Shown here: positions 12,531-58,582 of the stretch, one piece after another
Layout: each line of letters starts with the position of its first letter
How positions within the stretch are numbered: position 1 is the first letter of the stretch
Source: Escherichia phage ECML-4
Direction: 5' to 3' (one strand)
DNA length: 64,000 nt
Sequence record: JX128257
Notes under the pieces: generated by a model
Seen by the model: only the letters and a program-made list of their open reading frames with translations
Database searches by the model: none
What the model was told of the DNA's origin: nothing
Program-made: the position numbers and the translations under genes

Positions 12531-12572
12531 TCTTTCAAATTGAGCGAAACTCTACCGAGAAGGAATAACATT

Positions 12573-14468
12573 ATGGCAACTCAAAGCTTCAGCGTTGCGC
12601 CGTCCGTACAGTGGACTGAGCGTGATGCCACGCTTCAGACTTCTCCGTCCGTGGTTGTTCAGGGCGCGACAGTCGGCAAATTTCAATGGGGTGAAGTCGA
12701 ACTCCCAGTGCTGGTGACTGGTGGTGAGACGGGTTTGGTGAAGAAATTCTTCAAACCTAATGACAGCACTGCGACAGATTTCCTTGTGATTGCAGACTTT
12801 TTGTCTTACAGCTCTATGGCATGGGTCACTCGTGTTGTTGGTCCTCTGGCCAAGAACTCTGTCACCAAAGGCCAGACAGCCATCACGATCAAAAACAAGC
12901 TGGATTTTGAAACAGCAAGTCCGTCAGCGTCTATCACTTGGGCTGGTCGTTATCCAGGATCTCTGGGGAATGACATCGCCATCAATGTTTGTGACTCCGC
13001 TGGATTCCCGACATGGGAATTCCGTAACAACTTTGCGTACGCACCTCAGTCTGGTGAATTCCATGTTGTGGTTGTAGACAAAGTTGGGCGCATTACTGAC
13101 TCTGCAGGCGCAGTCGGTCAGGTTGACCGTATATCTGTTTCTGGCACGGCAACTGCAGCTGGCACCATCAGTGTGGCAGGTGAAGATATCGCATATCTGG
13201 ATACTGATACTCCGGCCACTTTGGCGACCAAAATTGGCGCGGCGCTGACGGCGCTAACAGATGTTTATTCTTCTGTCGTTGTTAAGTCTAACACTGTCAT
13301 CGTGACCCATAAAGCTATTGGTCCCCAGACAGTTACTGCTATTGTTCCAGATGATAAGGGGCTGACTGCAACCGCCGTGATTACCACTGTTGGTGCATCT
13401 GGTTCTATTATCGAAAAATACGAACTCATGCAGAACACACAGGGTTCCAAAAAGTCCGATGGCGCGAATGCGTACTTCAAAGATGTCATCAATGATACAT
13501 CAAATTGGGTGTACACCTTCGCTACCGCTCTGGCCGCAGATGTTGTTGAATTAGAAGGCGGCGTAGACGACTACAATATCAACCGTGTCGCGGCTATCCA
13601 AGTTCTGAACAATGCCGAAGCATATGATGCGAAGCCAGTATTTGCATACTGTGAAGAGTTGATTGAACAACAGGCATTAATCGACTTGTCTACCGAGCGA
13701 AAAGACACCGTTTCCTTCGTGTCGCCTTTGCGTGATACCGTGGTCGGCAACCGTGGCCGTGAGATGGACGATGTGGTCGCTTGGCGTGAAAGTCTGGTGC
13801 GCGACTCCTCCTATTTCTTCATGGACGACAACTGGGCATACGTGTACGATAAATACAACGATAAGATGCGCTGGATCCCTGCTTGCGGCGGTACAGCGGG
13901 TGTTTGGGCACGTAGTATTGAAATCGCGGGTATCTACAAATCTCCTGCGTTCCACAACCGTGGCAAATACAACAACTACAATCGAATGGCGTGGTCTGCG
14001 TCTTCCGATGAACGTGCCGTGTTGTACCGCAACCAGATTAACAGCATCGTGACCTTCTCCAATGAAGGTATCGTGTTGTATGGTGACAAAACTGGTCTGA
14101 CACGTCCGTCTGCTTTCGATCGTATCAATGTTCGCGGTCTGTTTATTATGGCAGAACAGAACATCGCTGCAATCGCCAAATATTACCTTGGTGAGAACAA
14201 TGATGCGTTCACTCGCAGTCTGTTCAGCAACGCTGTTCGTCCTTATATTCGCCAGCTGGCAAATATGGGCGCGATCTACGATGGTAAAGTCAAGTGTGAC
14301 GAAGATAACAACACTGCTGACGTTATTGCGGCAAACCAGATGGTCGCTGGTATCTGGCTGAAACCGGAATACAGCATTAATTGGATCTACTTGGATTTTG
14401 CTGCCGTTCGACCGGACATGGAGTTCAGCGAGATCGAGTCCGGCGGCGGTATCGTCGCGGCGTCCTAA
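12573..14468 (+). CDS. 18: Tail sheath protein gp18
   Basis: N-terminal GATVGKFQWG matches T4 gp18 (AALAGKFQWG); C-terminal block (GDKTGLTRPSAFDRINVRGLF) matches T4 (GDKTATSVPSPFDRINVRRLF); ATG with AGAAGGAA site. Confidence 0.85.
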   Translation: MATQSFSVAPSVQWTERDATLQTSPSVVVQGATVGKFQWGEVELPVLVTGGETGLVKKFFKPNDSTATDFLVIADFLSYSSMAWVTRVVGPLAKNSVTKGQTAITIKNKLDFETASPSASITWAGRYPGSLGNDIAINVCDSAGFPTWEFRNNFAYAPQSGEFHVVVVDKVGRITDSAGAVGQVDRISVSGTATAAGTISVAGEDIAYLDTDTPATLATKIGAALTALTDVYSSVVVKSNTVIVTHKAIGPQTVTAIVPDDKGLTATAVITTVGASGSIIEKYELMQNTQGSKKSDGANAYFKDVINDTSNWVYTFATALAADVVELEGGVDDYNINRVAAIQVLNNAEAYDAKPVFAYCEELIEQQALIDLSTERKDTVSFVSPLRDTVVGNRGREMDDVVAWRESLVRDSSYFFMDDNWAYVYDKYNDKMRWIPACGGTAGVWARSIEIAGIYKSPAFHNRGKYNNYNRMAWSASSDERAVLYRNQINSIVTFSNEGIVLYGDKTGLTRPSAFDRINVRGLFIMAEQNIAAIAKYYLGENNDAFTRSLFSNAVRPYIRQLANMGAIYDGKVKCDEDNNTADVIAANQMVAGIWLKPEYSINWIYLDFAAVRPDMEFSEIESGGGIVAAS

Positions 14469-14471
14469 ATA
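14465..14471 (+). promoter_or_regulatory. Putative late promoter element CTAAATA overlapping the sheath stop codon
   Basis: cCTAAATATAAG, 33 nt before the homing endonuclease ATG. Confidence 0.35.
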
Positions 14472-14478
14472 TAAGACA

Positions 14479-14502
14479 CATGCCCTCTTCGGAGGGCATT
14501 TC
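14479..14502 (+). terminator. Hairpin (TGCCCTC-ttcg-GAGGGCA then TTTC)
   Basis: Inverted repeat after the sheath gene; it contains the ribosome-binding site of the next gene, so it may be an attenuator rather than a full terminator. Confidence 0.4.
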
Positions 14503-14503
14503 A

Positions 14504-15226
14504 ATGATCTTTATAATAGAGAACATCGAAATGATCGGAAGTGTCTACAAAATCACAAATCTCACCAACCAGAAAGCCTATATCGGGATCACCACACGCG
14601 ACCCAATAGACAGGTGGTGGGAGCATTGCAACAACGCTCAGAACGGCTCTGATTACTTCATTCACCAGGCCATCCGTAAATACGGCGAAGAATCATTCTC
14701 GGTTCAGGTAATCGCGCAGACCAATTCTATAGAAGACCTCAAAGAATTAGAGATCATCTTGATAAAACAGCACGGCACTCATATGTCTACACAGAAAGGT
14801 TATAACAAGACTTGGGGTGGTGACGGCGCAACTTCTTCAGGGAAAGCGGGGGCAATAGACGTTAATACTGGTGAACGTTTAGGACTAATAGATTGTTCAG
14901 ATCCTCGTTGGGATATGGGGGAGATTATTAGTTGCAGACATGGAGTCAAACATAAAGATAATACCAGGTTGTCCAACTATGCCAAAACTCGGACTGGCGT
15001 TAAGAACCCCAATGCCAAGAAGTTCAAACTGATTTCACCATCCGGTGAAGAACATGAGATACATGGGAATTGCAAAGAATATGTGGAAAGCCTTGGGTTG
15101 AAATATTCAGCTCTTTATGATTATATTGAGAAAGACATCCCTGTTCCTCCGCCTTCTATATTTCATAAGAAGAATGCTTCACAAGAACGATTGAACACTG
15201 TTGGGTGGAGACTCGAAAGAATATGA
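14504..15226 (+). CDS. GIY-YIG homing endonuclease (free-standing, Seg-like)
   Basis: N-terminal VYKITNLTNQKAYIGIT (GIY-YIG) plus downstream R and E/N positions; GGAGGG site upstream; inserted between the conserved sheath and tube genes. Confidence 0.75.
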   Translation: MIFIIENIEMIGSVYKITNLTNQKAYIGITTRDPIDRWWEHCNNAQNGSDYFIHQAIRKYGEESFSVQVIAQTNSIEDLKELEIILIKQHGTHMSTQKGYNKTWGGDGATSSGKAGAIDVNTGERLGLIDCSDPRWDMGEIISCRHGVKHKDNTRLSNYAKTRTGVKNPNAKKFKLISPSGEEHEIHGNCKEYVESLGLKYSALYDYIEKDIPVPPPSIFHKKNASQERLNTVGWRLERI

Positions 15227-15681
15227 TATACGCATACAAAATTGAAATGGTTTGTAATGGAAAGGTCTACATCGGTGTGACCAATCACCCACAACGAAGA
15301 TATGATCAGCATTTTGCGAATGCCTTTCATCATGGAGTCCAAAGTGAATTGTATGACGCCATGCGTAAGTATGGAACATCTGGATTTACTTTCGTTGTAA
15401 TTGCTCAGACCGATGAAGTCCATAAATGGGAATTAGAGAAGCAACTCATCGCTCAATATAATTCTTATGAGATGGGTTACAACATGAATAAAGGCGGTAA
15501 TGATGGAAGTCATATGCTGGGTAAAACTGCAGCAAAATTGACATCCACAGGTGAACACATTGGTCTTGTTTCTCTCATAGATCCCCGTTGGGAATTGTGT
15601 GAAATCGAACCTGTTTCAAGTAATGTTCATCATGGTTTCGATCTTTCTTCTATGAAGATTAAAAGATTGACGACTAATTAG
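15223..15681 (+). CDS. Second GIY-YIG homing endonuclease paralogue, shorter (about 152 aa)
   Basis: IYAYKIEMVCNGKVYIGVT motif; shares a DPRW(D/E) block with the upstream copy; start overlaps the upstream stop (ATGA). Confidence 0.6.
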   Translation: MIYAYKIEMVCNGKVYIGVTNHPQRRYDQHFANAFHHGVQSELYDAMRKYGTSGFTFVVIAQTDEVHKWELEKQLIAQYNSYEMGYNMNKGGNDGSHMLGKTAAKLTSTGEHIGLVSLIDPRWELCEIEPVSSNVHHGFDLSSMKIKRLTTN

Positions 15682-15711: not shown

Positions 15712-16245
15712 ATGGCGACAGTCAATGAGTTTCGCGCAGCCATGTCACGAGGGGGCGGCGTACAACGCCAACACCGCTGGCGTGTGACTGTAAACTTTCC
15801 TTCTTTTGTTGCTGGTTCCGACACAATTCGCGACGTGTCCTTGCTGGCTGTAACTACCAACACCCCGACAGGTCAGCTGGGTGAAATTCTGGTGCCCTGG
15901 GGTGGTCGTGAACTTCCATTCCCAGGCGACCGTCGTTTCGAAGCACTGCCTGTAACATTCATTAACGTTGTGAACAACGCGCCGTACAACGCATTTGAAG
16001 TGTGGCAGCAATTCATCAATGGTAGTGAAAACAACCGTGCCAGCGCGAATCCAGATGATTATTTCCGTGATATCATCATGGAGCTTCTGGATGCGAATGA
16101 CAATGTCACCAAGACATGGACTTTGCAGGGTGGCTGGCCTCAAAACCTCGGCCAATTGGAACTCGATATGTCTGCGATGGACTCTTATACACAGTTCACC
16201 GTCGATCTGCGTTATTTCCAAGCCGTGTCAGACAAATCTTTATAA
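15712..16245 (+). CDS. 19: Tail tube protein gp19
   Basis: C-terminus GGWPQNLGQLELDMSAMDSYTQFTVDLRYFQ matches T4 gp19 (GLWPTNVGELQLDWDSNNEIQTFEVTLALDYWE). Confidence 0.85.
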   Translation: MATVNEFRAAMSRGGGVQRQHRWRVTVNFPSFVAGSDTIRDVSLLAVTTNTPTGQLGEILVPWGGRELPFPGDRRFEALPVTFINVVNNAPYNAFEVWQQFINGSENNRASANPDDYFRDIIMELLDANDNVTKTWTLQGGWPQNLGQLELDMSAMDSYTQFTVDLRYFQAVSDKSL

Positions 16246-23123: not shown

Positions 23124-23148
23124 ATTTAAAATTTATTCAATAAACGGG

Positions 23149-23177
23149 GTTTACTTCTTCAATAAACCCCGTATACT
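23149..23177 (+). promoter_or_regulatory. Early promoter, sigma70-type (-35 GTTTAC, 17-bp spacer, -10 TATACT)
   Basis: GTTTAC at -35 is the T4 early-promoter hallmark; embedded in a 10-bp inverted repeat; the same module recurs at 58506 and 42352. Confidence 0.5.
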
Positions 23178-23226
23178 TCATTCCATAAGCAGCACAATAC
23201 TGACTCTGAAATGAAGGAAATATATC

Positions 23227-28099: not shown

Positions 28100-29605
28100 A
28101 TGTCAGAAATTCAAATAATCAAAGTTAACGAAGTGCGCATGCGAATCTTGGCGGAAGACTATATCCGCGAAGAACTCAATGATTACTTCAAATTTGAAGA
28201 TCCTAATTTCCAACCGAATCCCTTCAGTAAATGGGATGGCGTGGTACGCTTGTTCACAAAGAGTTCTGGCCTTATAGACATCGGTCTGTTGTTTGAGGTG
28301 TTTAAGTTCTGTAAGATGAATGGTTACACCATCAAATTAGATCCCGCCTTAAAATATATCCAAGATATACCAGACGAAGAGATACATACATTTATCAATT
28401 CCCTGAACGCTGTTTACCGTGATGAAAACAAGCAATACCAAATCGCAACAGTGCGCGACTATCAATTCGACTCAGTGGCCACAGCAATACGCCAATCCAG
28501 ATGCGTGCTAGAAGCGGCTACGAGCGCGGGTAAATCGTTTATTTTGTACATCATGGCGCGTTACTACAGGCAACGCAGAGAGGCACTGGAAAGCAATCTC
28601 AAGACGTTGATCGTTGTACCTTCCATTCACTTGGTGACTCAGTTGTATGACAACTTTGAGGAATACAGCCATGGCACAAATTGGAATACCATGATGAATG
28701 TCCAGATGATATGTGAAGGTGCAACAAAGGATATATTCAAGCCCATAGTCATTTCCACTTGGCAGGGTATTCAGAATCAGCCCAAAGAATGGTTCCATCA
28801 ATTTGGGGATATTGTTGTCGACGAAGTGCACACATCTAAATCTGAAAAGCTATCTTATATCCTGAACAACTGCATTAATGCTGACCAAAGATTGGGAGTA
28901 ACCGGAACCCTCGCGAATACAAAGGTTGCAGGGTTGCAGGTCGTTGCCCATTTTGGAGCATACCATAAAATTATTACAGCACGTGATTTAATAAATCTTG
29001 GTTATGCCGCAGATATCCATGTCAACATGATTGAAGTCATACATCCCATGGCGGATTGTATAGAAATGCATGGTGCTGAGTACCAAAAGGAAATAGAATT
29101 CCTCATAGCGAATGAACGTCGAAACGAGTTAATAGCCAGAATGGCATTGTCTTTGAAAGGTAACGTGGCCGTTATGTTCGAACGCATTGACGCCCATATG
29201 ATGATTGTTTATGAAATGCTTTCAGCCGTTAAGAAAAACGTATTTGTCATTAACGGCGAAGTTAAGACAGAAGTTCGTAAACAAATTCAGGCAGCGATGG
29301 AAGAGGGCGAAGATATAACACTGCTGGCATCTTATGGGACCATGCAACAGGGAGTGTCGATCAAAAAACTTCATCATTTGATATTGGCACACCCGAGTAA
29401 ATCCTATATTCGTGTCATACAGACTTTAGGGCGTCTCATGCGCCAGCACTCTTCAAAGGATGTCGCCAAGATCTGGGATTTAGTAGACAACTTGCGTTAC
29501 AAAGGATTTTCGTACAACCATGCCCTCAGACATTCGCATGAGAGATATAAATTTTATCTTATGGAGCGACACCCTGTACAAATGAAGAAAGTGTCGCTCC
29601 AGTAA
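28100..29605 (+). CDS. uvsW: UvsW SF2 DNA helicase
   Basis: N-terminal domain, Walker A (ATSAGKSF) and DExH box (IVVDEVH) align with T4 UvsW. Confidence 0.8.
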   Translation: MSEIQIIKVNEVRMRILAEDYIREELNDYFKFEDPNFQPNPFSKWDGVVRLFTKSSGLIDIGLLFEVFKFCKMNGYTIKLDPALKYIQDIPDEEIHTFINSLNAVYRDENKQYQIATVRDYQFDSVATAIRQSRCVLEAATSAGKSFILYIMARYYRQRREALESNLKTLIVVPSIHLVTQLYDNFEEYSHGTNWNTMMNVQMICEGATKDIFKPIVISTWQGIQNQPKEWFHQFGDIVVDEVHTSKSEKLSYILNNCINADQRLGVTGTLANTKVAGLQVVAHFGAYHKIITARDLINLGYAADIHVNMIEVIHPMADCIEMHGAEYQKEIEFLIANERRNELIARMALSLKGNVAVMFERIDAHMMIVYEMLSAVKKNVFVINGEVKTEVRKQIQAAMEEGEDITLLASYGTMQQGVSIKKLHHLILAHPSKSYIRVIQTLGRLMRQHSSKDVAKIWDLVDNLRYKGFSYNHALRHSHERYKFYLMERHPVQMKKVSLQ

Positions 29606-33929: not shown

Positions 33930-35153
33930 ATGAAAGATAAACCGTGTGACATTCCTTATTGCGGTGTTCGGGAAACCAAAATTAAATCTGCACACCCCAC
34001 GTTAAGTCCATTCCATAAACAACTCGCATACGAATGGATGAGCGAGCGCTATAAGATCCACGTGAGAAAGGACGTCCAACGTCTTCCTGCTCCTTGGACG
34101 GATAATCCCATACTACGGCAGGTCAAGTTCTGTAACGTCCGGAGAGAGCACGACAGGCAGTCTCTTAACCTGATCAACAATATCGTCAAGAACGATGCTC
34201 TGGGCATTGCCGACAAGATGTTCAACTGTGTTCTGTTCCGCATGTTCAACCTCTGGGACCCGATCAAGGCTATCGGTGACGCTCGTACTATCAAAGAGTT
34301 CGCAAACATCGATCTTGATGCAACCCGCAAAAGTCTTCAGGAATTTGAGGCCAACGGTGGTAAGATCTTCACCAATGCCTTCAACACAGGCGGTCTAAAG
34401 CAGTGTCTGGCGTTCCCCGAACTCGTTGTCAACCACAAGGAGCAGCGCTTTGGTGGTATGATGGTTAAGGTACACCGTGTTGGCCAGGGTATCGTTGATG
34501 AATTGGATTACAAGGTCGCCAAGAAGCTGGTTGAAGAAAATCCTGGGGAGTACACGATCGAGGGCTGGGAGCCGTACATGCCGATGCGTGTTATCCGTTC
34601 CCTGAAGGCATTTGTCAACAAGTATCCTGATTATTTCAATGATCTTTTACGTCTTGACTCTCCGCTGAAAGTTTACCAGCGCATGTATGACGACATTGAA
34701 GGGCTTGGGCCATTCCTGGCATATCAGATATGGGTGGACTTCACATACATCCCTGAGTATCCATTCAGTGAGAATCACTTCACCATCGCTGGCCCAGGTT
34801 GCCGTGCGGGTATTGACCTGATGTTCCTGGATAAGGACGGTATGACTCATGAAGAGTGCATCTTCTGGGTTCGAGATCACCAGTATCAATTGTTTGCCCA
34901 GTATGGTTATGTCCAAGAGCAGTTCTGGTCAGCCGAAGCGCCGGAAGATCAGTGCATGAATGTCATGCAGCTGGAGAACATGTTCTGTGAATTGAGCAAG
35001 TACACCCGCTGTGTTGAGGCTATTGAGAGAGGGGAAAAGCCACGCGGCAAGGTAGGTTACGATGGAGGCGGAGAATACAAAAAGCGGTGCGATGAAGTTG
35101 TCCTCAAACGCGGTTCCGTCAATTTGTTAGATCGTTTGAAGAAACCTGAATAA
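33930..35153 (+). CDS. Conserved hypothetical enzyme-sized protein (408 aa)
   Basis: GAGAGGA site then ATG; no P-loop or other canonical motif recognised; adjacent to the MazG-like gene. Confidence 0.4.
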   Translation: MKDKPCDIPYCGVRETKIKSAHPTLSPFHKQLAYEWMSERYKIHVRKDVQRLPAPWTDNPILRQVKFCNVRREHDRQSLNLINNIVKNDALGIADKMFNCVLFRMFNLWDPIKAIGDARTIKEFANIDLDATRKSLQEFEANGGKIFTNAFNTGGLKQCLAFPELVVNHKEQRFGGMMVKVHRVGQGIVDELDYKVAKKLVEENPGEYTIEGWEPYMPMRVIRSLKAFVNKYPDYFNDLLRLDSPLKVYQRMYDDIEGLGPFLAYQIWVDFTYIPEYPFSENHFTIAGPGCRAGIDLMFLDKDGMTHEECIFWVRDHQYQLFAQYGYVQEQFWSAEAPEDQCMNVMQLENMFCELSKYTRCVEAIERGEKPRGKVGYDGGGEYKKRCDEVVLKRGSVNLLDRLKKPE

Positions 35154-35265
35154 AGAATCGCTTTACTTCATTCTTCAATAACCCCATTTCAACGTATATT
35201 GACCTCACTTTAACGACGCGCCCATTTAGGGCGCTCAATTTGAACTGAAACAGGAAGACTATACC

Positions 35266-42314: not shown

Positions 42315-42345
42315 AATCCCCAATATTTATTGGGGATTTTTACTT
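42315..42345 (+). terminator. Rho-independent terminator (AATCCCCA-atatttat-TGGGGATT then TTTTACTTTT)
   Basis: 8-bp perfect stem plus T-run after the ACP-like gene. Confidence 0.65.
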
Positions 42346-42351
42346 TTAGGG

Positions 42352-42381
42352 GTTTACTTCTTCTAAAGAATATCCTATTAT
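42352..42381 (+). promoter_or_regulatory. Early promoter, sigma70-type (-35 GTTTAC, -10 TATTAT)
   Basis: Same GGGGTTTACTTCTTC module as at 23149; follows a terminator. Confidence 0.45.
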
Positions 42382-42426
42382 TCAATAACTGGCTAACGTG
42401 GGGTTGGCTAGAAAAGGAGATACAAA

Positions 42427-46848: not shown

Positions 46849-47158
46849 ACCGTTTGAACTTAAATTTCGCGTTTGGCATATTCCCCAGGTTCCTGGGATC
46901 GCTTTTCATATTGAGGTTCCAACATTTGAAGAAGCGCAGCGCCTGAAGAATGCTCTGGGTGATTATGATTTGTTCCAGTTCAACAACAATATCAAGCCGG
47001 ATTATTGCAATGCTTCGGGCATTCAGATTTATCAACATGATCTGACCGATGATGATCTTAATGATATGGGTCTGGATGATCGTTGGGTTGATATGGAAGA
47101 TGTTGACGAACTCAACGATTATTTCGAGCATCTGCGCAGTACAGGGTGGGAAATATGA
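46838..47158 (+). CDS. Small, strongly acidic protein (106 aa)
   Basis: C-terminal half is rich in Asp/Glu (DLTDDDLNDMGLDDRWVDMEDVDELNDYFE). Confidence 0.4.
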   Translation: MSNKPFELKFRVWHIPQVPGIAFHIEVPTFEEAQRLKNALGDYDLFQFNNNIKPDYCNASGIQIYQHDLTDDDLNDMGLDDRWVDMEDVDELNDYFEHLRSTGWEI

Positions 47159-47463
47159 TTTCAAAATATATTGTAAAGCCTGGGGATACTCTGTCCAGCA
47201 TCGCTCTAAAATTATATGGTGATGCCCAACAGTATATCAAATTAGCCAGATTCAACAATATCCAAAACCCAGGCCATATCACGGTTGGTCAGATTATTTG
47301 TTTACCCACACCTGTCGAAGACAAAGAACACATTATGATTCCGGTTCAACCGACTCAGAAGTGTTTGGATGCGATAGCTGGTTTATTTCGGCCAGGTTTT
47401 TGTGATGGAACTATTGAACGCCACATTTATCAAGCGATTGTGGAAAACGCAGGTGTAAAATGA
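47146..47463 (+). CDS. LysM domain protein
   Basis: N-terminal YIVKPGDTLSSIALKLYGD...YIKLARFNNI...GHITVGQIICLP matches the LysM peptidoglycan-binding fold. Confidence 0.55.
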   Translation: MGNMISKYIVKPGDTLSSIALKLYGDAQQYIKLARFNNIQNPGHITVGQIICLPTPVEDKEHIMIPVQPTQKCLDAIAGLFRPGFCDGTIERHIYQAIVENAGVK

Positions 47464-47669
47464 TCGGATTAATTCGTTACCTGTTCATATTCGTAATTTC
47501 AACATTCATTTTATTTTTCTTTTTCAAATACTTGAAAGAGACTAAAATCTACCGAAGTAAACGTTGGCGCAAACGGGTGAGGGTAACTTTCCTGCTGCTG
47601 ATTTCTTCGGTTACAATAACCGCACTCACATTGGGTGCATATATCTACATTTTTGAAGGGGTACATTGA
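47460..47669 (+). CDS. Small two-TM membrane protein (holin-like or NfeD-like partner)
   Basis: Two hydrophobic helices separated by a basic loop (KYLKETKIYRSKRWRKRVRV); overlaps both neighbours. Confidence 0.4.
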   Translation: MIGLIRYLFIFVISTFILFFFFKYLKETKIYRSKRWRKRVRVTFLLLISSVTITALTLGAYIYIFEGVH

Positions 47670-48460
47670 TGTTCAAGAAATTGGTGTTCGGTGCAATTAT
47701 GGTTCTGGCTGCAAGTCTACTTTCTGGTTGTGGTGGCGTTATCGATGAAGGTAATGTCGGCGTTCGCACCCAATGGGGTGAAGTAGACATGAACCCTGTA
47801 ACAGCGGGGATCTACACCAGCTTTGTTTCAAGCGTGGATGTTTACACGACCAAAGAAGCCGTTGTGAGTCTGACTAAAATGACGCCAAAGGCCAAAGACA
47901 ACCTGACTCTGGAAGACTTGGATGTGGATGTTTATTACACACCCAATGTCGCAAAGGTTCCGTGGTTCCATACCAAATTTGCTGGCCAGAGCGCCGAACT
48001 CGATGATGGCACGATAGCGGTGGGTTTCAATCTAGTTAAAACTGCTGCAGCATCTTCTTCGATGGACGCCGTTTCTTCTCTTGATTCTATGACAATTCAC
48101 ACCCAACGTGCTGAATTAGAGAAGATGATTAAAGACCGCACTCAGCAACAATTAGAGACTGCAGCGCCTGGCATGTTCACAATCACACGCGTGTTGGTCA
48201 AAAAGGCACTGACGGATCCTTCCATTGAGCAGTCTATCCGTGATAATGTTATGGCGGACAAACGATTGGATACGGCAAGAAAGAACGTTGAAATTCGCGA
48301 GCAAGAAGCCCAAGCGAACCAGAAACTGACCACCTCGCTGACGCCTGAATATCTTCAACATGAATATAACATGGTATTACAATCATGCGCCAACAGTGGA
48401 AAATGTACTCTGATCGTTGACGGATCCGGCTCAGGTAAAATGCTGAACGTCGGCAAATAA
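47669..48460 (+). CDS. SPFH (band-7/prohibitin-like) domain lipoprotein
   Basis: Signal peptide with lipobox (MFKKLVFGAIMVLAASLLSGC); IDEGNVGVRTQWGEV...NLTLEDLDVDVYY and an Ala/Glu-rich helical tail fit the SPFH fold. Confidence 0.55.
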   Translation: MFKKLVFGAIMVLAASLLSGCGGVIDEGNVGVRTQWGEVDMNPVTAGIYTSFVSSVDVYTTKEAVVSLTKMTPKAKDNLTLEDLDVDVYYTPNVAKVPWFHTKFAGQSAELDDGTIAVGFNLVKTAAASSSMDAVSSLDSMTIHTQRAELEKMIKDRTQQQLETAAPGMFTITRVLVKKALTDPSIEQSIRDNVMADKRLDTARKNVEIREQEAQANQKLTTSLTPEYLQHEYNMVLQSCANSGKCTLIVDGSGSGKMLNVGK

Positions 48461-48543
48461 ACGCTTTATTCAATAATATTTGTTAGGTAAGCTGTAGTCC
48501 TCTTGTAGTGAAACATTGTAAACAACTAACTGGAGTAATCCGA

Positions 48544-48822
48544 ATGAACCGTACTGATTTTATCGCTCACATCGCCCAGACTCAGGGTATGACCAAAGGC
48601 GAAGCAGAGAAGATCGTGGCATCCTTTATCAACGGCGTAAAAACTGCAGTCGCAGCTGGCCAATCTGTCCAATTCGTCGGCTTCGGCGCGTTTGAAGTTA
48701 AACATCAGGAAGCGCGCACTGGCCGCAACCCGCTGAACGGGCAAGCGATTCAGATCGAAGCGAAAAATGTTGTTAAATTCAAAGTCGGCGAAGGTCTGAA
48801 AGCTGCTGCCAACGGCCAGTAA
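48544..48822 (+). CDS. HU/IHF-family DNA-binding protein
   Basis: MNRTDFIAHIA...VQFVGFGAFEVKHQEARTGRNPLNGQAIQIEAKNVVKFKVG aligns with E. coli HU ([30 protein letters not shown]). Confidence 0.85.
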   Translation: MNRTDFIAHIAQTQGMTKGEAEKIVASFINGVKTAVAAGQSVQFVGFGAFEVKHQEARTGRNPLNGQAIQIEAKNVVKFKVGEGLKAAANGQ

Positions 48823-48947
48823 TCACATCCAGAGCGGTCGTGCCTAGCACAGCGTGTTAGGCTAAAAGAGAAAGCCGAGGTTAATGCCTCGGCTTTTTCG
48901 TTGTTGGAATTCGGGTAAACTATAACAGAACCCAAAGGAGGAACAAC

Positions 48948-50669
48948 GTGACAGCATTTAATCAATACCGAAAGGCAATTGACGCCATAGGCCGTAAGGT
49001 TCCTATAGAAGAAATACAAAGCCTTGCCAAAAACGAATTTCCATATGACAAGGCGAACCAAGGCCAGATGGAATGTATCGTCGAAGCCGTTGATGCCTTG
49101 GTCAACAAAAAGGTCAAACACGTGATCATTGAAGCCCCAACTGGAGTGGGGAAATCTTTGATTGGGACAACAATTCATAAAGTGATTCGCCATTTGGTTT
49201 TACAGGCCGATCCTTATGGGCAATTCCGCACGTCTATCAGTACGCCCACCAAAGGTCTACAAGATCAGTATGCTGCTGAAAAGGCGGTGGCGATAGACAT
49301 CCTGAAAGGCAAGAAGAACTATCGTTGCCACGTACACCCAGATGTGTATTACAACGCCGTGCAATGCCGTATAGCATGCCGCGACGGGCATTGTAGCAAA
49401 CGCCGTTGTCCTTATGTACAGGCGCGCAATTTATGGACTGATATTTCGTCATTGCGTTGCACTAATGCAGCTATGATGATTGAGATGTGCACCACCATCT
49501 GTATGAAGCCTGAAAACCGTTCCGATATGCTGATCTTAGACGAGTGTCATAAGATGCCCTCTACGCTCCTAGAGCACACGATAATGGAATACAATACAAA
49601 GGCTGTGGATGGGCTGCGAACTATCCCCGAAGGGAAGGAGATAGTCTCTATCATTGCCGATATCGTAGAACGCACCAAGGACTATGTCTTGGGCAAGTTG
49701 TATTCCTTGTCCGGTGAAATGCATTCGATGTTTGAAGACCTCCATCTTAAAGTGGAGTCTTTGTTGGAAGTTCTTGAAGAATTGGTTGAAGATGACCGCC
49801 TGAGTGAAAGCCAGGTGATGAAACTCGCCGACATTATCGATGTACTACACAATCTGAGTGATTATTGTGGTATTATGTCTCAGACAAAGGCCAGCACCTT
49901 TATCGTACAGGAAAAGGGAGATGACTTTATTCGGTTTAAACCCGTCATGCCTTCTGATGTAAGTGAATTTGGATTGTTCAGGAAAGCCGATTACCATGTT
50001 CATATGTCGGCAACAATCTGCGGAATCGATTCATATGCCCGTTCCTTGGGTATCCGCCAGGGGGATTATCATTCAATACAGATTGGAAATCCAATCCCAA
50101 TTGAAAATCGGAAAGTCAACTATATGCCCATCGTTAAGATGACCAACAACATGGGCGATTATGAAATGAAAAGGCTGACGGAATACATTGATGAAATAAT
50201 CGCATTCCATCCAGGGCAATCTGGCATCATACATACAGTGAGCTATGATCGCGCATTAGCAATACAAAAATTCAGCAAATACCAGAACTTTATCCATGTG
50301 CCACGCACTCGAAAGGCGTTGATGGATATTATGGAAAATGCCTTCAGGACAAAAACACCTTGTGTTATTGCCAGTCCGGCCATGGAAGAAGGATATGACT
50401 TCAAAGGTGATTACAGCCGATTCCAAATACTGATCAAAGTTCCTTACGATTATTTGGGTGATCCATTGATCGCACATATTAATTCAGTGGATCCGTCTGC
50501 GTACTTCCGCAACGCAGTATTGCGCATTGTTCAGATGTGCGGACGTTCGGTCAGGGGTGTGGATGACTGGGCTGCAACATACATAATCGATTCTTCCTTT
50601 GAATCTCTTATGATGCGCAACCCAGAGTTCTTCCCAACCTGGTTCACCGATGCAGTATTTGAAGTTTAA
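48948..50669 (+). CDS. SF2 helicase of the XPD/DinG-like type with a Cys-rich (Fe-S-like) insertion
   Basis: GTG start with AAAGGAGG site; Walker A EAPTGVGKSL, DExH-like LILDECHKM, and a cluster of cysteines between them (YRCH, CRIACRDGHCSKRRCP, RCTN). Confidence 0.55.
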   Translation: MTAFNQYRKAIDAIGRKVPIEEIQSLAKNEFPYDKANQGQMECIVEAVDALVNKKVKHVIIEAPTGVGKSLIGTTIHKVIRHLVLQADPYGQFRTSISTPTKGLQDQYAAEKAVAIDILKGKKNYRCHVHPDVYYNAVQCRIACRDGHCSKRRCPYVQARNLWTDISSLRCTNAAMMIEMCTTICMKPENRSDMLILDECHKMPSTLLEHTIMEYNTKAVDGLRTIPEGKEIVSIIADIVERTKDYVLGKLYSLSGEMHSMFEDLHLKVESLLEVLEELVEDDRLSESQVMKLADIIDVLHNLSDYCGIMSQTKASTFIVQEKGDDFIRFKPVMPSDVSEFGLFRKADYHVHMSATICGIDSYARSLGIRQGDYHSIQIGNPIPIENRKVNYMPIVKMTNNMGDYEMKRLTEYIDEIIAFHPGQSGIIHTVSYDRALAIQKFSKYQNFIHVPRTRKALMDIMENAFRTKTPCVIASPAMEEGYDFKGDYSRFQILIKVPYDYLGDPLIAHINSVDPSAYFRNAVLRIVQMCGRSVRGVDDWAATYIIDSSFESLMMRNPEFFPTWFTDAVFEV

Positions 50670-51433
50670 TAACCTGCAATAAACGATAAATGGCACTTGA
50701 TATTTGGTTCAAGTGTCGTTATCGTGATGATCATATTATCCACATCTTGGCTGAAAGATATATTTGCTATTGGTTTAGTCTGAACGTGGTTGTACAGGCT
50801 GTATATCAAATCTTCACCACGGTATCCGACTTTACCATCAGTATCCTGCCAATGGCCTAACGTGGATTCATGAGCATGTACTCGGAATTCTATCATATGG
50901 AACAATGCTTTTGGGATTGTTTTCAGTATGCTGGTTCCGACAACAGGGATATCAATAGCAGAGTCGTTGGAATTGCCCTCATATACTGAAGCCCAACCAA
51001 ATGTTGGATCTCCTCCCGCCACGGGAGTTCTCTTCCAGTATTGGAATTCTGGATTACCCGAAGCGTTCTTTTGCAGAAGGATTACTTCACCGCCTTCAAA
51101 ATTAGAAGTGTCTATATCATCACGTGCTAATAAATCAGCTGGAGAACCAATAAATTTCCAGGTTTCGCGATCTAAAATAGACTTATAATAATCGGTGAAT
51201 ACGTTGCTGTCGTCAGCTGCGTTGATTGCGTCTTTAAGACCTTCACCTGTGACCATCTCATTGAGTTTTAGCCACATGTTTTTGACAGCTGACGCAGCTG
51301 CGACTTGACCTTCAGTCCCACCCGCCGTGTAGTCATAAACGATGTCCAGCTTTTGTATGGAATCATTTATAGACAAGAGCAAACGCTCAATTTCTGTGGC
51401 GGTCAGACTGAAACGATATGCGCGTTCTGACAT
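50666..51433 (-). CDS. Hypothetical protein (255 aa) on the minus strand
   Basis: Single long minus-strand ORF filling the gap between helicase and RNase H; GAGGAA site on the minus strand. Confidence 0.45.
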   Translation of the reverse strand: MSERAYRFSLTATEIERLLLSINDSIQKLDIVYDYTAGGTEGQVAAASAVKNMWLKLNEMVTGEGLKDAINAADDSNVFTDYYKSILDRETWKFIGSPADLLARDDIDTSNFEGGEVILLQKNASGNPEFQYWKRTPVAGGDPTFGWASVYEGNSNDSAIDIPVVGTSILKTIPKALFHMIEFRVHAHESTLGHWQDTDGKVGYRGEDLIYSLYNHVQTKPIANISFSQDVDNMIITITTLEPNIKCHLSFIAGY

Positions 51434-51475: not shown

Positions 51476-52003
51476 ATGATTGAAATATACACTGACGGGG
51501 CATCTTCCCCGCAGAAGACACAAGCCGCAGGTTGGGCATTTGCTATCAGTCCAATCACTGGAGAGCAATGGAAAGTGTTTTATGGGTATTTACCCCCACC
51601 GTCAACGAATAATATCGCTGAGTTGCTTGGGGTTATAAACGCCTTGAAGATTCTATGGAAATTCTCTAATTGTGGGGAACGCTGTATTCCCTCAGCCCGT
51701 ATTATATCCGACAGCCAATATGTTATCAATAGTGTTTTGGAGTGGCGTAGAAAATGGGAATATGAAGGGATGCCGCCTAAGAACACAGAACTCCTACTCG
51801 AATTGTTCAATTATTATGACAAAGTTTGTTCAATTTGTGAACTTGAATTAAAATGGGTGAAAGGTCATGCGGGGAATATCGGCAACGAAATCGCAGATCA
51901 GTGGAGCGTCAGAGCCAAAGAAAATAGCTCGATGGTTCTTGAAAATAATCGTTTCCTGGTCAGAAAGGTTGTTGGTTCTTTCAATGAATTCATTGGTATT
52001 TGA
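51476..52003 (+). CDS. RNase HI-type ribonuclease H
   Basis: IYTDGAS (Asp 1), NNIAELLGVINAL (Glu), ISDSQYVI (Asp 2), KGHAGNIGNEIADQ (His/Asp) in canonical RNase HI order. Confidence 0.7.
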   Translation: MIEIYTDGASSPQKTQAAGWAFAISPITGEQWKVFYGYLPPPSTNNIAELLGVINALKILWKFSNCGERCIPSARIISDSQYVINSVLEWRRKWEYEGMPPKNTELLLELFNYYDKVCSICELELKWVKGHAGNIGNEIADQWSVRAKENSSMVLENNRFLVRKVVGSFNEFIGI

Positions 52004-58477: not shown

Positions 58478-58505
58478 AATAATTCAATAAAAGGGGCAAA
58501 CGCCC

Positions 58506-58534
58506 CTTTACTTCTTCAATAACTACCGTATAAT
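58506..58534 (+). promoter_or_regulatory. Early promoter, sigma70-type (-35 CTTTAC, 17-bp spacer, -10 TATAAT)
   Basis: Perfect TATAAT; sequence block homologous to the promoter at 23149; preceded by a terminator hairpin GGGGC-aaac-GCCCC. Confidence 0.55.
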
Positions 58535-58582
58535 TCTAAACATAAGCAGTACGACACCAACTTGAAAAGCAGGAACTACATC

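Follow-up and report, generated by a model that had tools for sequence, protein, structure and literature searches.

The DNA analyzed here (hereafter, the window) is a stretch of 64,000 nucleotides (nt) from Escherichia phage ECML-4 (sequence record JX128257), in which an open reading frame on the plus strand, at positions 48948-50669, encodes a helicase of the XPD/DinG family with an unusually compact cysteine module. A helicase of this kind had been proposed at this locus by an initial sequence-only reading; its open reading frame of 573 amino acids (aa) was found exactly as described, and so were all the strings quoted from it, i.e., GVGKSL (aa 66-71), YRCH (aa 125-128), CRIACRDGHCSKRRCP (aa 140-155), RCTN (aa 170-173) and LILDECHKM (aa 194-202). 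The features of the gene and of its product are the following:

48935-48941 (+), Shine-Dalgarno sequence AAGGAGG, 6 nt before the helicase GTG
48948-50669 (+), coding sequence (CDS) of the helicase (573 aa, XPD/DinG family), from the GTG start to the TAA stop; orthologue of Vi01_106c
49038-49067 (+), Q-motif region FPYDKANQGQ; F31 and Q40 invariant
49134-49157 (+), motif I (Walker A) APTGVGKS; T65, G66, G68 and K69 invariant
49242-49271 (+), motif Ia TPTKGLQDQY; L104, Q105 and Q107 invariant
49305-49451 (+), predicted compact iron-sulfur (Fe-S) module, aa ~120-168 (approximate), supported by invariance and by alignment with E. coli DinG and Rad3
49326-49328, 49365-49367, 49377-49379, 49392-49394 and 49407-49409 (+), codons of C127, C140, C144, C149 and C154, respectively, in the predicted Fe-S module
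49539-49550 (+), motif II DECH (DExH box); D198, E199 and H201 invariant
49560-49982 (+), Arch domain, aa ~205-345 (approximate), supported by AlphaFold2 secondary structure and full-length DinG/XPD superpositions
50001-50015 (+), motif III HMSAT; T356 invariant, and H352, M353, S354 and A355 conserved in at least 90%
50055-50666 (+), motor domain 2, aa ~370-573, with Helicase_C_2 and motifs V and VI
50340-50645 (+), Pfam match to Helicase_C_2, aa 465-566
50373-50411 (+), motif V region SPAMEEGYDFKGD, within motor domain 2
50532-50558 (+), motif VI QMCGRSVRG; Q529, G532, R533 and R536 invariant

The orthologue in the type phage Vi01, Vi01_106c, has an identical GTG start and is 99.2% identical to the window gene, and nucleotide identity reached 99.9% with genes annotated as 'DNA helicase' or 'ATP-dependent helicase' in more than 20 Kuttervirus genomes (Ackermannviridae; phages of Salmonella and E. 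coli O157). The window, which runs in the reverse orientation of the Vi01 record, is thus assigned by its sequence to a Vi01-like phage of the Ackermannviridae and not to T4. That T4 has no such helicase, as the sequence-only reading had remarked, agrees with established knowledge (to our knowledge, T4 lacks any helicase of the XPD/DinG type), although T4 is not the relevant comparison for a Vi01-like phage. The helicase is a core gene of Vi01-like phages and the Ackermannviridae, and a table of conserved genes of Vi01-like phages lists a 'putative ATP-dependent helicase' between a ribonuclease and a DNA-binding protein (PMC10892097).

With regard to family membership, a profile constructed from 89 homologues (32–97% identity to the query) was compared with the sequences of the PDB. 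Top matches were exclusively members of the XPD family, i.e., F. magna EndoDinG (5.4e-20), E. coli DinG (1.2e-17), Rad3 and human XPD (~1e-13), and further Thermoplasma and Sulfolobus XPD, FANCJ and CHL1. When this profile was aligned with E. coli DinG by hhalign, a probability of 99.3% over 493 columns was obtained. Helicase_C_2 (PF13307), one of the two Pfam families named for checking the initial proposal, matched the query with an E-value of 6.9e-12 (46.2 bits versus a cut-off of 25.3) and was found in all 89 homologues; generic ResIII/DEAD matches were present in the Walker A region and a weak one to HBB (E 0.033) in the Arch region. Among the PHROGs, phrog_2488 'DNA helicase' was matched over its full length (E 4.7e-265), with residues 19-573 of the query covering positions 2-579 of the 579 in the profile. 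When 1.84 billion cluster representatives (50%-identity clusters) were searched exhaustively with a profile, 4,481 clusters passed a threshold of E<=1e-30 and 16,371 a threshold of E<=1e-3, and relatives from haloarchaeal tailed viruses and other phages shared 26–49% identity with the query over more than 94% of its length. The subfamily is very large and mostly viral.

The predicted fold was in line with this assignment. AlphaFold2, run with the 89-sequence alignment, yielded a model with a mean predicted local distance difference test (pLDDT) score of 91.9, a predicted template modelling score of 0.90 and no stretch below 50. When the model was compared with the PDB by Foldseek, the first 44 matches were all DinG, XPD/Rad3, CasDinG or Hna, with RecQ following from 1e-9; the match to E. 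coli DinG had an E-value of 2.3e-27 and a template modelling score of 0.68. Inserted between motifs II and III, the model contains an Arch domain with long helices (229-242, 256-280 and 287-312) and beta hairpins. Sequence and model together predict the four-domain architecture of XPD and DinG, in which an Fe-S module and an Arch accompany the two RecA motor domains. The family proposed for this gene at the outset was hence borne out by profile, hhalign and Foldseek comparisons, whose best matches were Fe-S helicases of the DinG/XPD type and not superfamily 2 helicases devoid of Fe-S.

The protein contains 14 cysteines, nine of which lie within aa 120-200, between motifs Ia and II. In the alignment of the 89 homologues, C127, C140, C149 and C154 were among only 38 invariant columns, so that the cysteine-rich segment first noticed between Walker A and the DExH box goes beyond chance. 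The other ten cysteines vary: a cysteine was present at C144 in 20, at C171 in 19, at C181 in 44 and at C185 in 35 of the 89 sequences. The list of cysteines drawn up originally has to be narrowed accordingly; its probable ligands are C127, C140 or C144, C149 and C154, while C171 (in RCTN), C181 and C185 drop out as variable. A more remote alignment was composed of the query and 130 of the best 150 cluster representatives (23–42% identity; 131 sequences in total). Here, C127 and C154 were conserved in 100%, C149 in 95% and C140 in 83%, and at least four cysteines were found in the Fe-S segment in 127 of the sequences. Three or four of the cysteines are kept in Halorubrum virus HRTV-8, Rhizobium phage TM40, Salmonella phage Arash and Vibrio phage 1.031.O. 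The residues Y156, R160 and W163, directly after the cysteines of the module, are conserved as well, and the pLDDT was 82–90 within the module.

The hhalign comparison paired C127, C144, C149 and C154 with C120, C194, C199 and C205 of E. coli DinG, respectively, which we take to be the ligands of the cluster in that enzyme, and in the alignment of the profile with Rad3 from the PDB, C154-P-Y stood opposite C191-P-Y. Two layouts of the second ligand occur in the family, with the cysteine placed either nine residues before the third one (C140 type, dominant in the clade) or five residues before it (C144 or DinG type). In Kuttervirus-like proteins, both cysteines, C140 and C144, are present, separated by one turn of helix 138-145. 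Either might serve as the second ligand; for this clade, C140 is favoured over C144, which occupies the DinG position. With a spacing of C-x12-C-x8-C-x4-C, the first and the last cysteine are 28 residues apart, versus 86 in E. coli DinG. The pattern suggests that the module most likely holds a [4Fe-4S] cluster. In the crystal structure of FmaDinG, an Fe-S cluster is present, and the C289A/C294A exchange abolishes stability of the protein (PMC13650095).

Motifs Q, I, Ia, II, III and VI were invariant or nearly so both in the alignment of 89 sequences and in that of 131, and the protein is accordingly predicted to be a catalytically competent helicase of superfamily 2B (SF2B).

As for the other helicases of this phage group, the Vi01 annotation includes gp41, the gp59 loader, a UvsW homologue and Vi01_106c, and no others. 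The UvsW homologue is encoded at positions 28100-29605 of the window (2.5e-78 versus T4 UvsW, 2OCA). T4 assigns the role of accessory 5'->3' helicase to Dda, which belongs to superfamily 1B (SF1B). When T4 Dda was searched for by tblastn in the window and in nearly the whole Vi01 genome (all but ~0.5 kb), no homologue was found, the best E-value being 0.46, at the P-loop of PhoH. In a phage collection, a Dda-like gene was found in 2,344 records, with only 50 of these being Salmonella phages, and the Vi01-type helicase in 165 records of Salmonella phages.

Upstream of the helicase gene lies a gene for an HU/IHF-type DNA-binding protein (48508-48822, +; PF00216, 1.6e-29); a second gene labelled 'histone family DNA-binding' is annotated elsewhere in Vi01 (Vi01_008). 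Downstream, a convergent gene encoding 255 aa (50666-51433, -) overlaps the helicase stop codon by 4 nt. No Pfam match was obtained for its product, and its relatives are labelled 'putative structural protein' or 'baseplate wedge protein'. Next come a gene for an E. coli-type RNase HI (51476-52003, +; PF00075, 3.8e-25), which we take to be different from the FEN-type enzyme encoded by T4 rnh, and the genes for the late sigma factor gp55 and the recombination nuclease gp47/gp46. The block formed by the helicase, the minus-strand gene, RNase H, the gene at the gp55 position, gp47 and gp46 is found again in the distantly related Campanilevirus GR28A, where the helicase shares 34% identity and is annotated as 'DinG family ATP-dependent helicase'. 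Adjacency of helicase and RNase HI genes was found in Kuttervirus and Campanilevirus alone.

Other neighbours of the helicase gene are DexA in an Acinetobacter phage, clamp and clamp loader in an Aeromonas phage, and ligase, primase, exonuclease and DNA polymerase in a Rhizobium phage, and in the seven annotated relatives from phages and archaeal viruses that were examined, the gene lay within replication/recombination modules. Two metagenomic contigs carrying the helicase are phage-like, one with a Gp23 capsid protein and a T4 prohead protease, and the other 262 kb long and resembling a jumbo phage. On the latter (GCA_902725575.1), the distant helicase homologue lies beside two IS605 OrfB/Cas12f-like TnpB genes, and the same locus also contains a Y1 transposase, an S-AdoMet lyase and a Tad3-family gene.

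Taken together, we propose that the gene very probably encodes a catalytically competent XPD/Rad3/DinG helicase of SF2B, most likely with a [4Fe-4S] cluster, that would act as an accessory 5'->3' helicase of a T4-type replication and recombination machinery. The accessory role is suggested because the gene is placed within replication/recombination modules, is conserved in Vi01-like phages and occurs in a phage without Dda. In the proposed mechanism, the cluster would be ligated by C127, C149, C154 and either C140 or C144, and the Fe-S module and the Arch would form a pore, as in XPD and DinG; a strand-separating pore composed of these two elements has been described for the family (PMC13650095). 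The two RecA motor domains would then pull single-stranded DNA in the 5'->3' direction through this pore, a polarity that we infer by analogy with the family. The enzyme may work beside gp41 and UvsW, and its likely tasks would be the unwinding of forks, D-loops and R-loops and the clearance of obstacles. A part in repair or replication, as had been suggested from the sequence, fits the gene context; the other role suggested, that of countering host defences, found no support.

Several observations weigh against this proposal. DEAD_2 (PF06733), the Pfam family that covers the Fe-S region of XPD and DinG and the second one named for checking the initial proposal, had no match in the query at E<=1 and matched just 11 of the 89 relatives (E<=0.01; best 2e-5), a miss that reflects divergence and shortening of the module and not loss of the cysteines. 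Similarly, the best NCBIfam models all scored below their curated cut-offs (DinG NF008729, 60.5 bits versus 598; YoaA NF053712, 53.9 versus 680; Rad3/XPD TIGR00604, 26.8 versus 246.95), and these scores place the helicase inside the superfamily and outside every curated cellular orthologue group. The module is much shorter than that of E. coli DinG, which by sequence leaves room for a structural zinc site. The proposed replacement of Dda draws solely on a complementary distribution of the two helicases between Vi01 and T4 and on rough counts of records, and the adjacency to RNase HI is absent from Tedavirus, an Acinetobacter ackermannvirus, and Rhizobium and haloarchaeal viruses. Finally, in the literature searched there were no metal, ATPase or unwinding data for members of the viral subfamily, and a search for publications on phage helicases of the Fe-S, DinG or Rad3 type, and on the transcriptomics or core genes of Kuttervirus, yielded only generic listings of an 'ATP-dependent helicase' (PMC10892097).

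Compactness and the missing DEAD_2 match would also be expected if the four cysteines of the same fold bound structural zinc or formed a vestigial, metal-free module, for which the vestigial FeS domains of CasDinG offer a precedent (PMC10450177; PMC11981726). We consider this improbable, since vestigial or pseudo-FeS domains hold one cysteine or none and DinG-like domains with three or four are counted as Fe-S domains capable of cluster coordination (PMC11981726), while here four are invariant; moreover, C127, C149 and C154 are homologous in position to the E. coli DinG ligands, with C154-P-Y corresponding to the C-P-Y/F of Rad3 and DinG. A loss of enzymatic function is less credible still. 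Some DinG-like subgroups, such as sDinG, lack the ATP- and DNA-binding residues (PMC11981726), and 573 aa is short for the family, but it is extremely improbable that the protein is an inactive helicase-like scaffold, given that Walker A GxGK, DExH, SAT and motif VI Q-x2-GR-x2-R are kept in both alignments. The retention of these ATPase motifs speaks against a pseudo-enzyme like sDinG. Membership in sDinG itself was ruled out, as proteins of that subgroup have neither an Fe-S domain nor ATP-binding residues (PMC11981726), whereas both the Fe-S and the Arch modules are present here.

The remaining explanations concern the role of the enzyme. DinG-like helicases function in type IV CRISPR and in Hna defence, and the best match in a defence library (PADLOC) was full-length, to PDLC01439 'typeIV_DinG, CAS-IV-A associated' (E 3.4e-50). 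It might thus be asked whether the protein is chiefly a factor of counter-defence or inter-genomic conflict that strips CRISPR or Argonaute R-loops or mimics CasDinG. The true Csf4 models of PADLOC matched only weakly, however (E 3.5e-6 to 3e-3), NCBIfam cas_csf4 (TIGR03117) reached 12.2 bits versus a cut-off of 400, and in the seven annotated relatives examined the gene is found in replication/recombination modules and not in variable accessory islands; it also figures in the published list of conserved genes of the Vi01-like group (PMC10892097). PDLC01439 itself may, we guess, be a generic profile of the Rad3/DinG type. With its best match being an 'associated' model and the genuine Csf4 models weak, counter-defence was rejected as the main explanation, and we regard it as very unlikely. 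A link to transcription has a better, albeit still small, chance of being correct. E. coli DinG has been reported to remove R-loops or RNA polymerase at replication-transcription collisions, and the phage enzyme might, together with RNase HI and gp55, act similarly at collisions or process R-loop primers at origins. The block of helicase, RNase HI, gp55, gp47 and gp46 genes shared by Kuttervirus and the distant Campanilevirus speaks for this role, and the loss of adjacency in the Tedavirus, Acinetobacter, Rhizobium and haloarchaeal genomes speaks against it; synteny with RNase HI was dropped as a functional clue, since it is not kept in more distant relatives. R-loop or primer processing with the neighbouring RNase HI is an attractive but weakly supported idea, and one that would refine the accessory-helicase proposal rather than be a true alternative to it.

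With regard to expression, the intergenic region upstream of the helicase contains one further feature:

48871-48896 (+), terminator-like hairpin after the HU-like gene, a perfect, G+C-rich 10-bp stem, AAAGCCGAGG-TTAATG-CCTCGGCTTT followed by TTCGTTGTT

A run of T residues lies directly 3' of this hairpin, and no recognisable promoter was found between it and the helicase start. In a k-mer survey, ACTAAATA(T/C) was present upstream of the structural genes and of uvsW, and sigma70-like promoters of the form TTTACT-n17-TATAaT were also found. The 125-nt gap before the helicase contained neither of the two, and thus, unlike the structural genes and uvsW, the helicase gene has no ACTAAATA late-promoter-like motif upstream. 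A generic scan for sigma70 promoters and terminators gave hits at the level of shuffled sequence, and the T4 late consensus TATAAATA occurred once in 64 kb, which is at chance level. Judging from these elements, the helicase is probably expressed at early or middle times via read-through.

The survey also revealed two kinds of recurrent element elsewhere in the window. The motif (A)CTAAATA(T/C) is located at positions 1758, 8274, 12524, 18003, 19221, 28068, 57137, 61452 and 62077 (+), 25–45 nt before the starts of structural genes and uvsW, and the 8-mer ACTAAATA was intergenic in five of its six occurrences; this motif is probably the gp55-dependent late promoter of the Vi01-like group. A repeated intergenic element, TTTACTTCTTCAATAA-n-CCGTATA(C/A)T, at 23125-23185, 35150-35215, 42345-42400 and 58495-58545 (+), resembles a sigma70-type promoter (TTTACT, 17 nt, TATACT/TATAAT) and often stands right after a G+C hairpin, and nine out of ten plus-strand occurrences of TTCAATAA were intergenic. 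The TTTACTTCTTCAATAA and TTCAATAA elements are likely early promoters.

Further genes of the window were recorded in the course of the analysis. Shortly upstream of the replication genes, an SPFH/Band-7 lipoprotein is encoded at 47666-48460 (+; PF01145, 3.2e-13), and a small LysM protein, labelled 'endolysin' in Vi01, at 47146-47463 (+; PF01476, 3e-11). Two tandem open reading frames for GIY-YIG endonucleases (14381-15226 and 15205-15681, both +; PF01541, 1e-8 and 7.8e-10, respectively) are situated between the genes for tail sheath (12540-14468) and tail tube (15712-16245). At this site, Vi01 has a single gene, Vi01_159c, and the phage of the window is ~700 bp longer, which probably represents an additional insertion of a homing endonuclease.

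The annotation as a helicase already exists in hundreds of genomes, and relatives are already designated 'Rad3-related' or 'DinG family'. To this, the analysis adds the conservation and the positions of the Fe-S cysteines, a compact module with two alternatives for its second ligand, an estimate of how large the mainly viral subfamily is, and the argument from the absence of Dda; a 2025 classification of DinG-like proteins comprised bacterial subgroups only and did not include the viral subfamily (PMC11981726). At present, this is a solid refinement of a 'DNA helicase' annotation and no surprise. More tentatively, a large virus-borne clade of miniaturised Fe-S helicases might have taken over the job of Dda, with the second ligand shifted between positions 140 and 144 among its sub-clades, a possibility that we raise with clear reserve and that would apply to the Ackermannviridae and other phages with T4-type replisomes (~4,500 clusters, E<=1e-30). 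If this were true, replication, recombination and repair in these phages would be tied to the Fe-S assembly of the host and would be sensitive to oxidative or redox stress and to iron stress. Such a dependence on Fe-S could influence phage performance in vivo, and members of this group feature in phage-cocktail and biocontrol studies on Salmonella and E. coli O157 (e.g., PMC13097653). It would also mean that in T4-type replisomes Dda, an SF1B helicase, can be replaced by an Fe-S helicase of SF2B, and would provide a naturally minimal XPD/DinG enzyme (~570 aa) for mechanistic and structural studies.

As regards known systems, the four-domain SF2B architecture (motor domain 1, Fe-S, Arch and motor domain 2) is shared with E. 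coli DinG (PDB 6FWR/6FWS) and with YoaA, the paralogue of DinG, and E. coli DinG and the phage helicase have a common C-x4-C-x5/4-C-P-Y/F core. Both proteins share merely ~15–20% identity, however, and differ in length (573 aa in the phage helicase versus 716 aa) and in the insertion between the first and the second ligand, of ~73 residues in E. coli DinG and of 12–16 residues in the phage helicase, which in addition is viral and not SOS-regulated. F. magna EndoDinG (PDB 9KQH; 16–18% identity) bears an N-terminal PD-(D/E)XK nuclease domain that is absent in the phage protein. The archaeal and eukaryotic XPD/Rad3 helicases (2VL7, 3CRV, 4A15 and 5FMF), as well as FANCJ and CHL1, show a different cysteine spacing, and the phage helicase is devoid of TFIIH partners. 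CasDinG (Csf4) and Hna are alike in overall fold (Foldseek E 1e-16 to 1e-20). The FeS domain of CasDinG is vestigial and cysteine-free (PMC10450177), in contrast to the four conserved cysteines of the phage helicase, near whose gene no cas genes were found. T4 Dda is not homologous, as it belongs to another superfamily and has no Fe-S module, and is proposed as a functional equivalent only, each of the two being the third, non-replicative helicase in a T4-type replisome; the presence of both enzymes is complementary, Vi01 being without Dda and T4 without an XPD/DinG-type helicase. The closest parallels are the Rad3-related helicases of the haloarchaeal tailed viruses HF2 and HRTV-8 and the DinG-family proteins of other phages (PHROG 2488), which, although annotated by similarity alone, belong to the same subfamily, share the cysteine module and do not differ in kind from the helicase described here.

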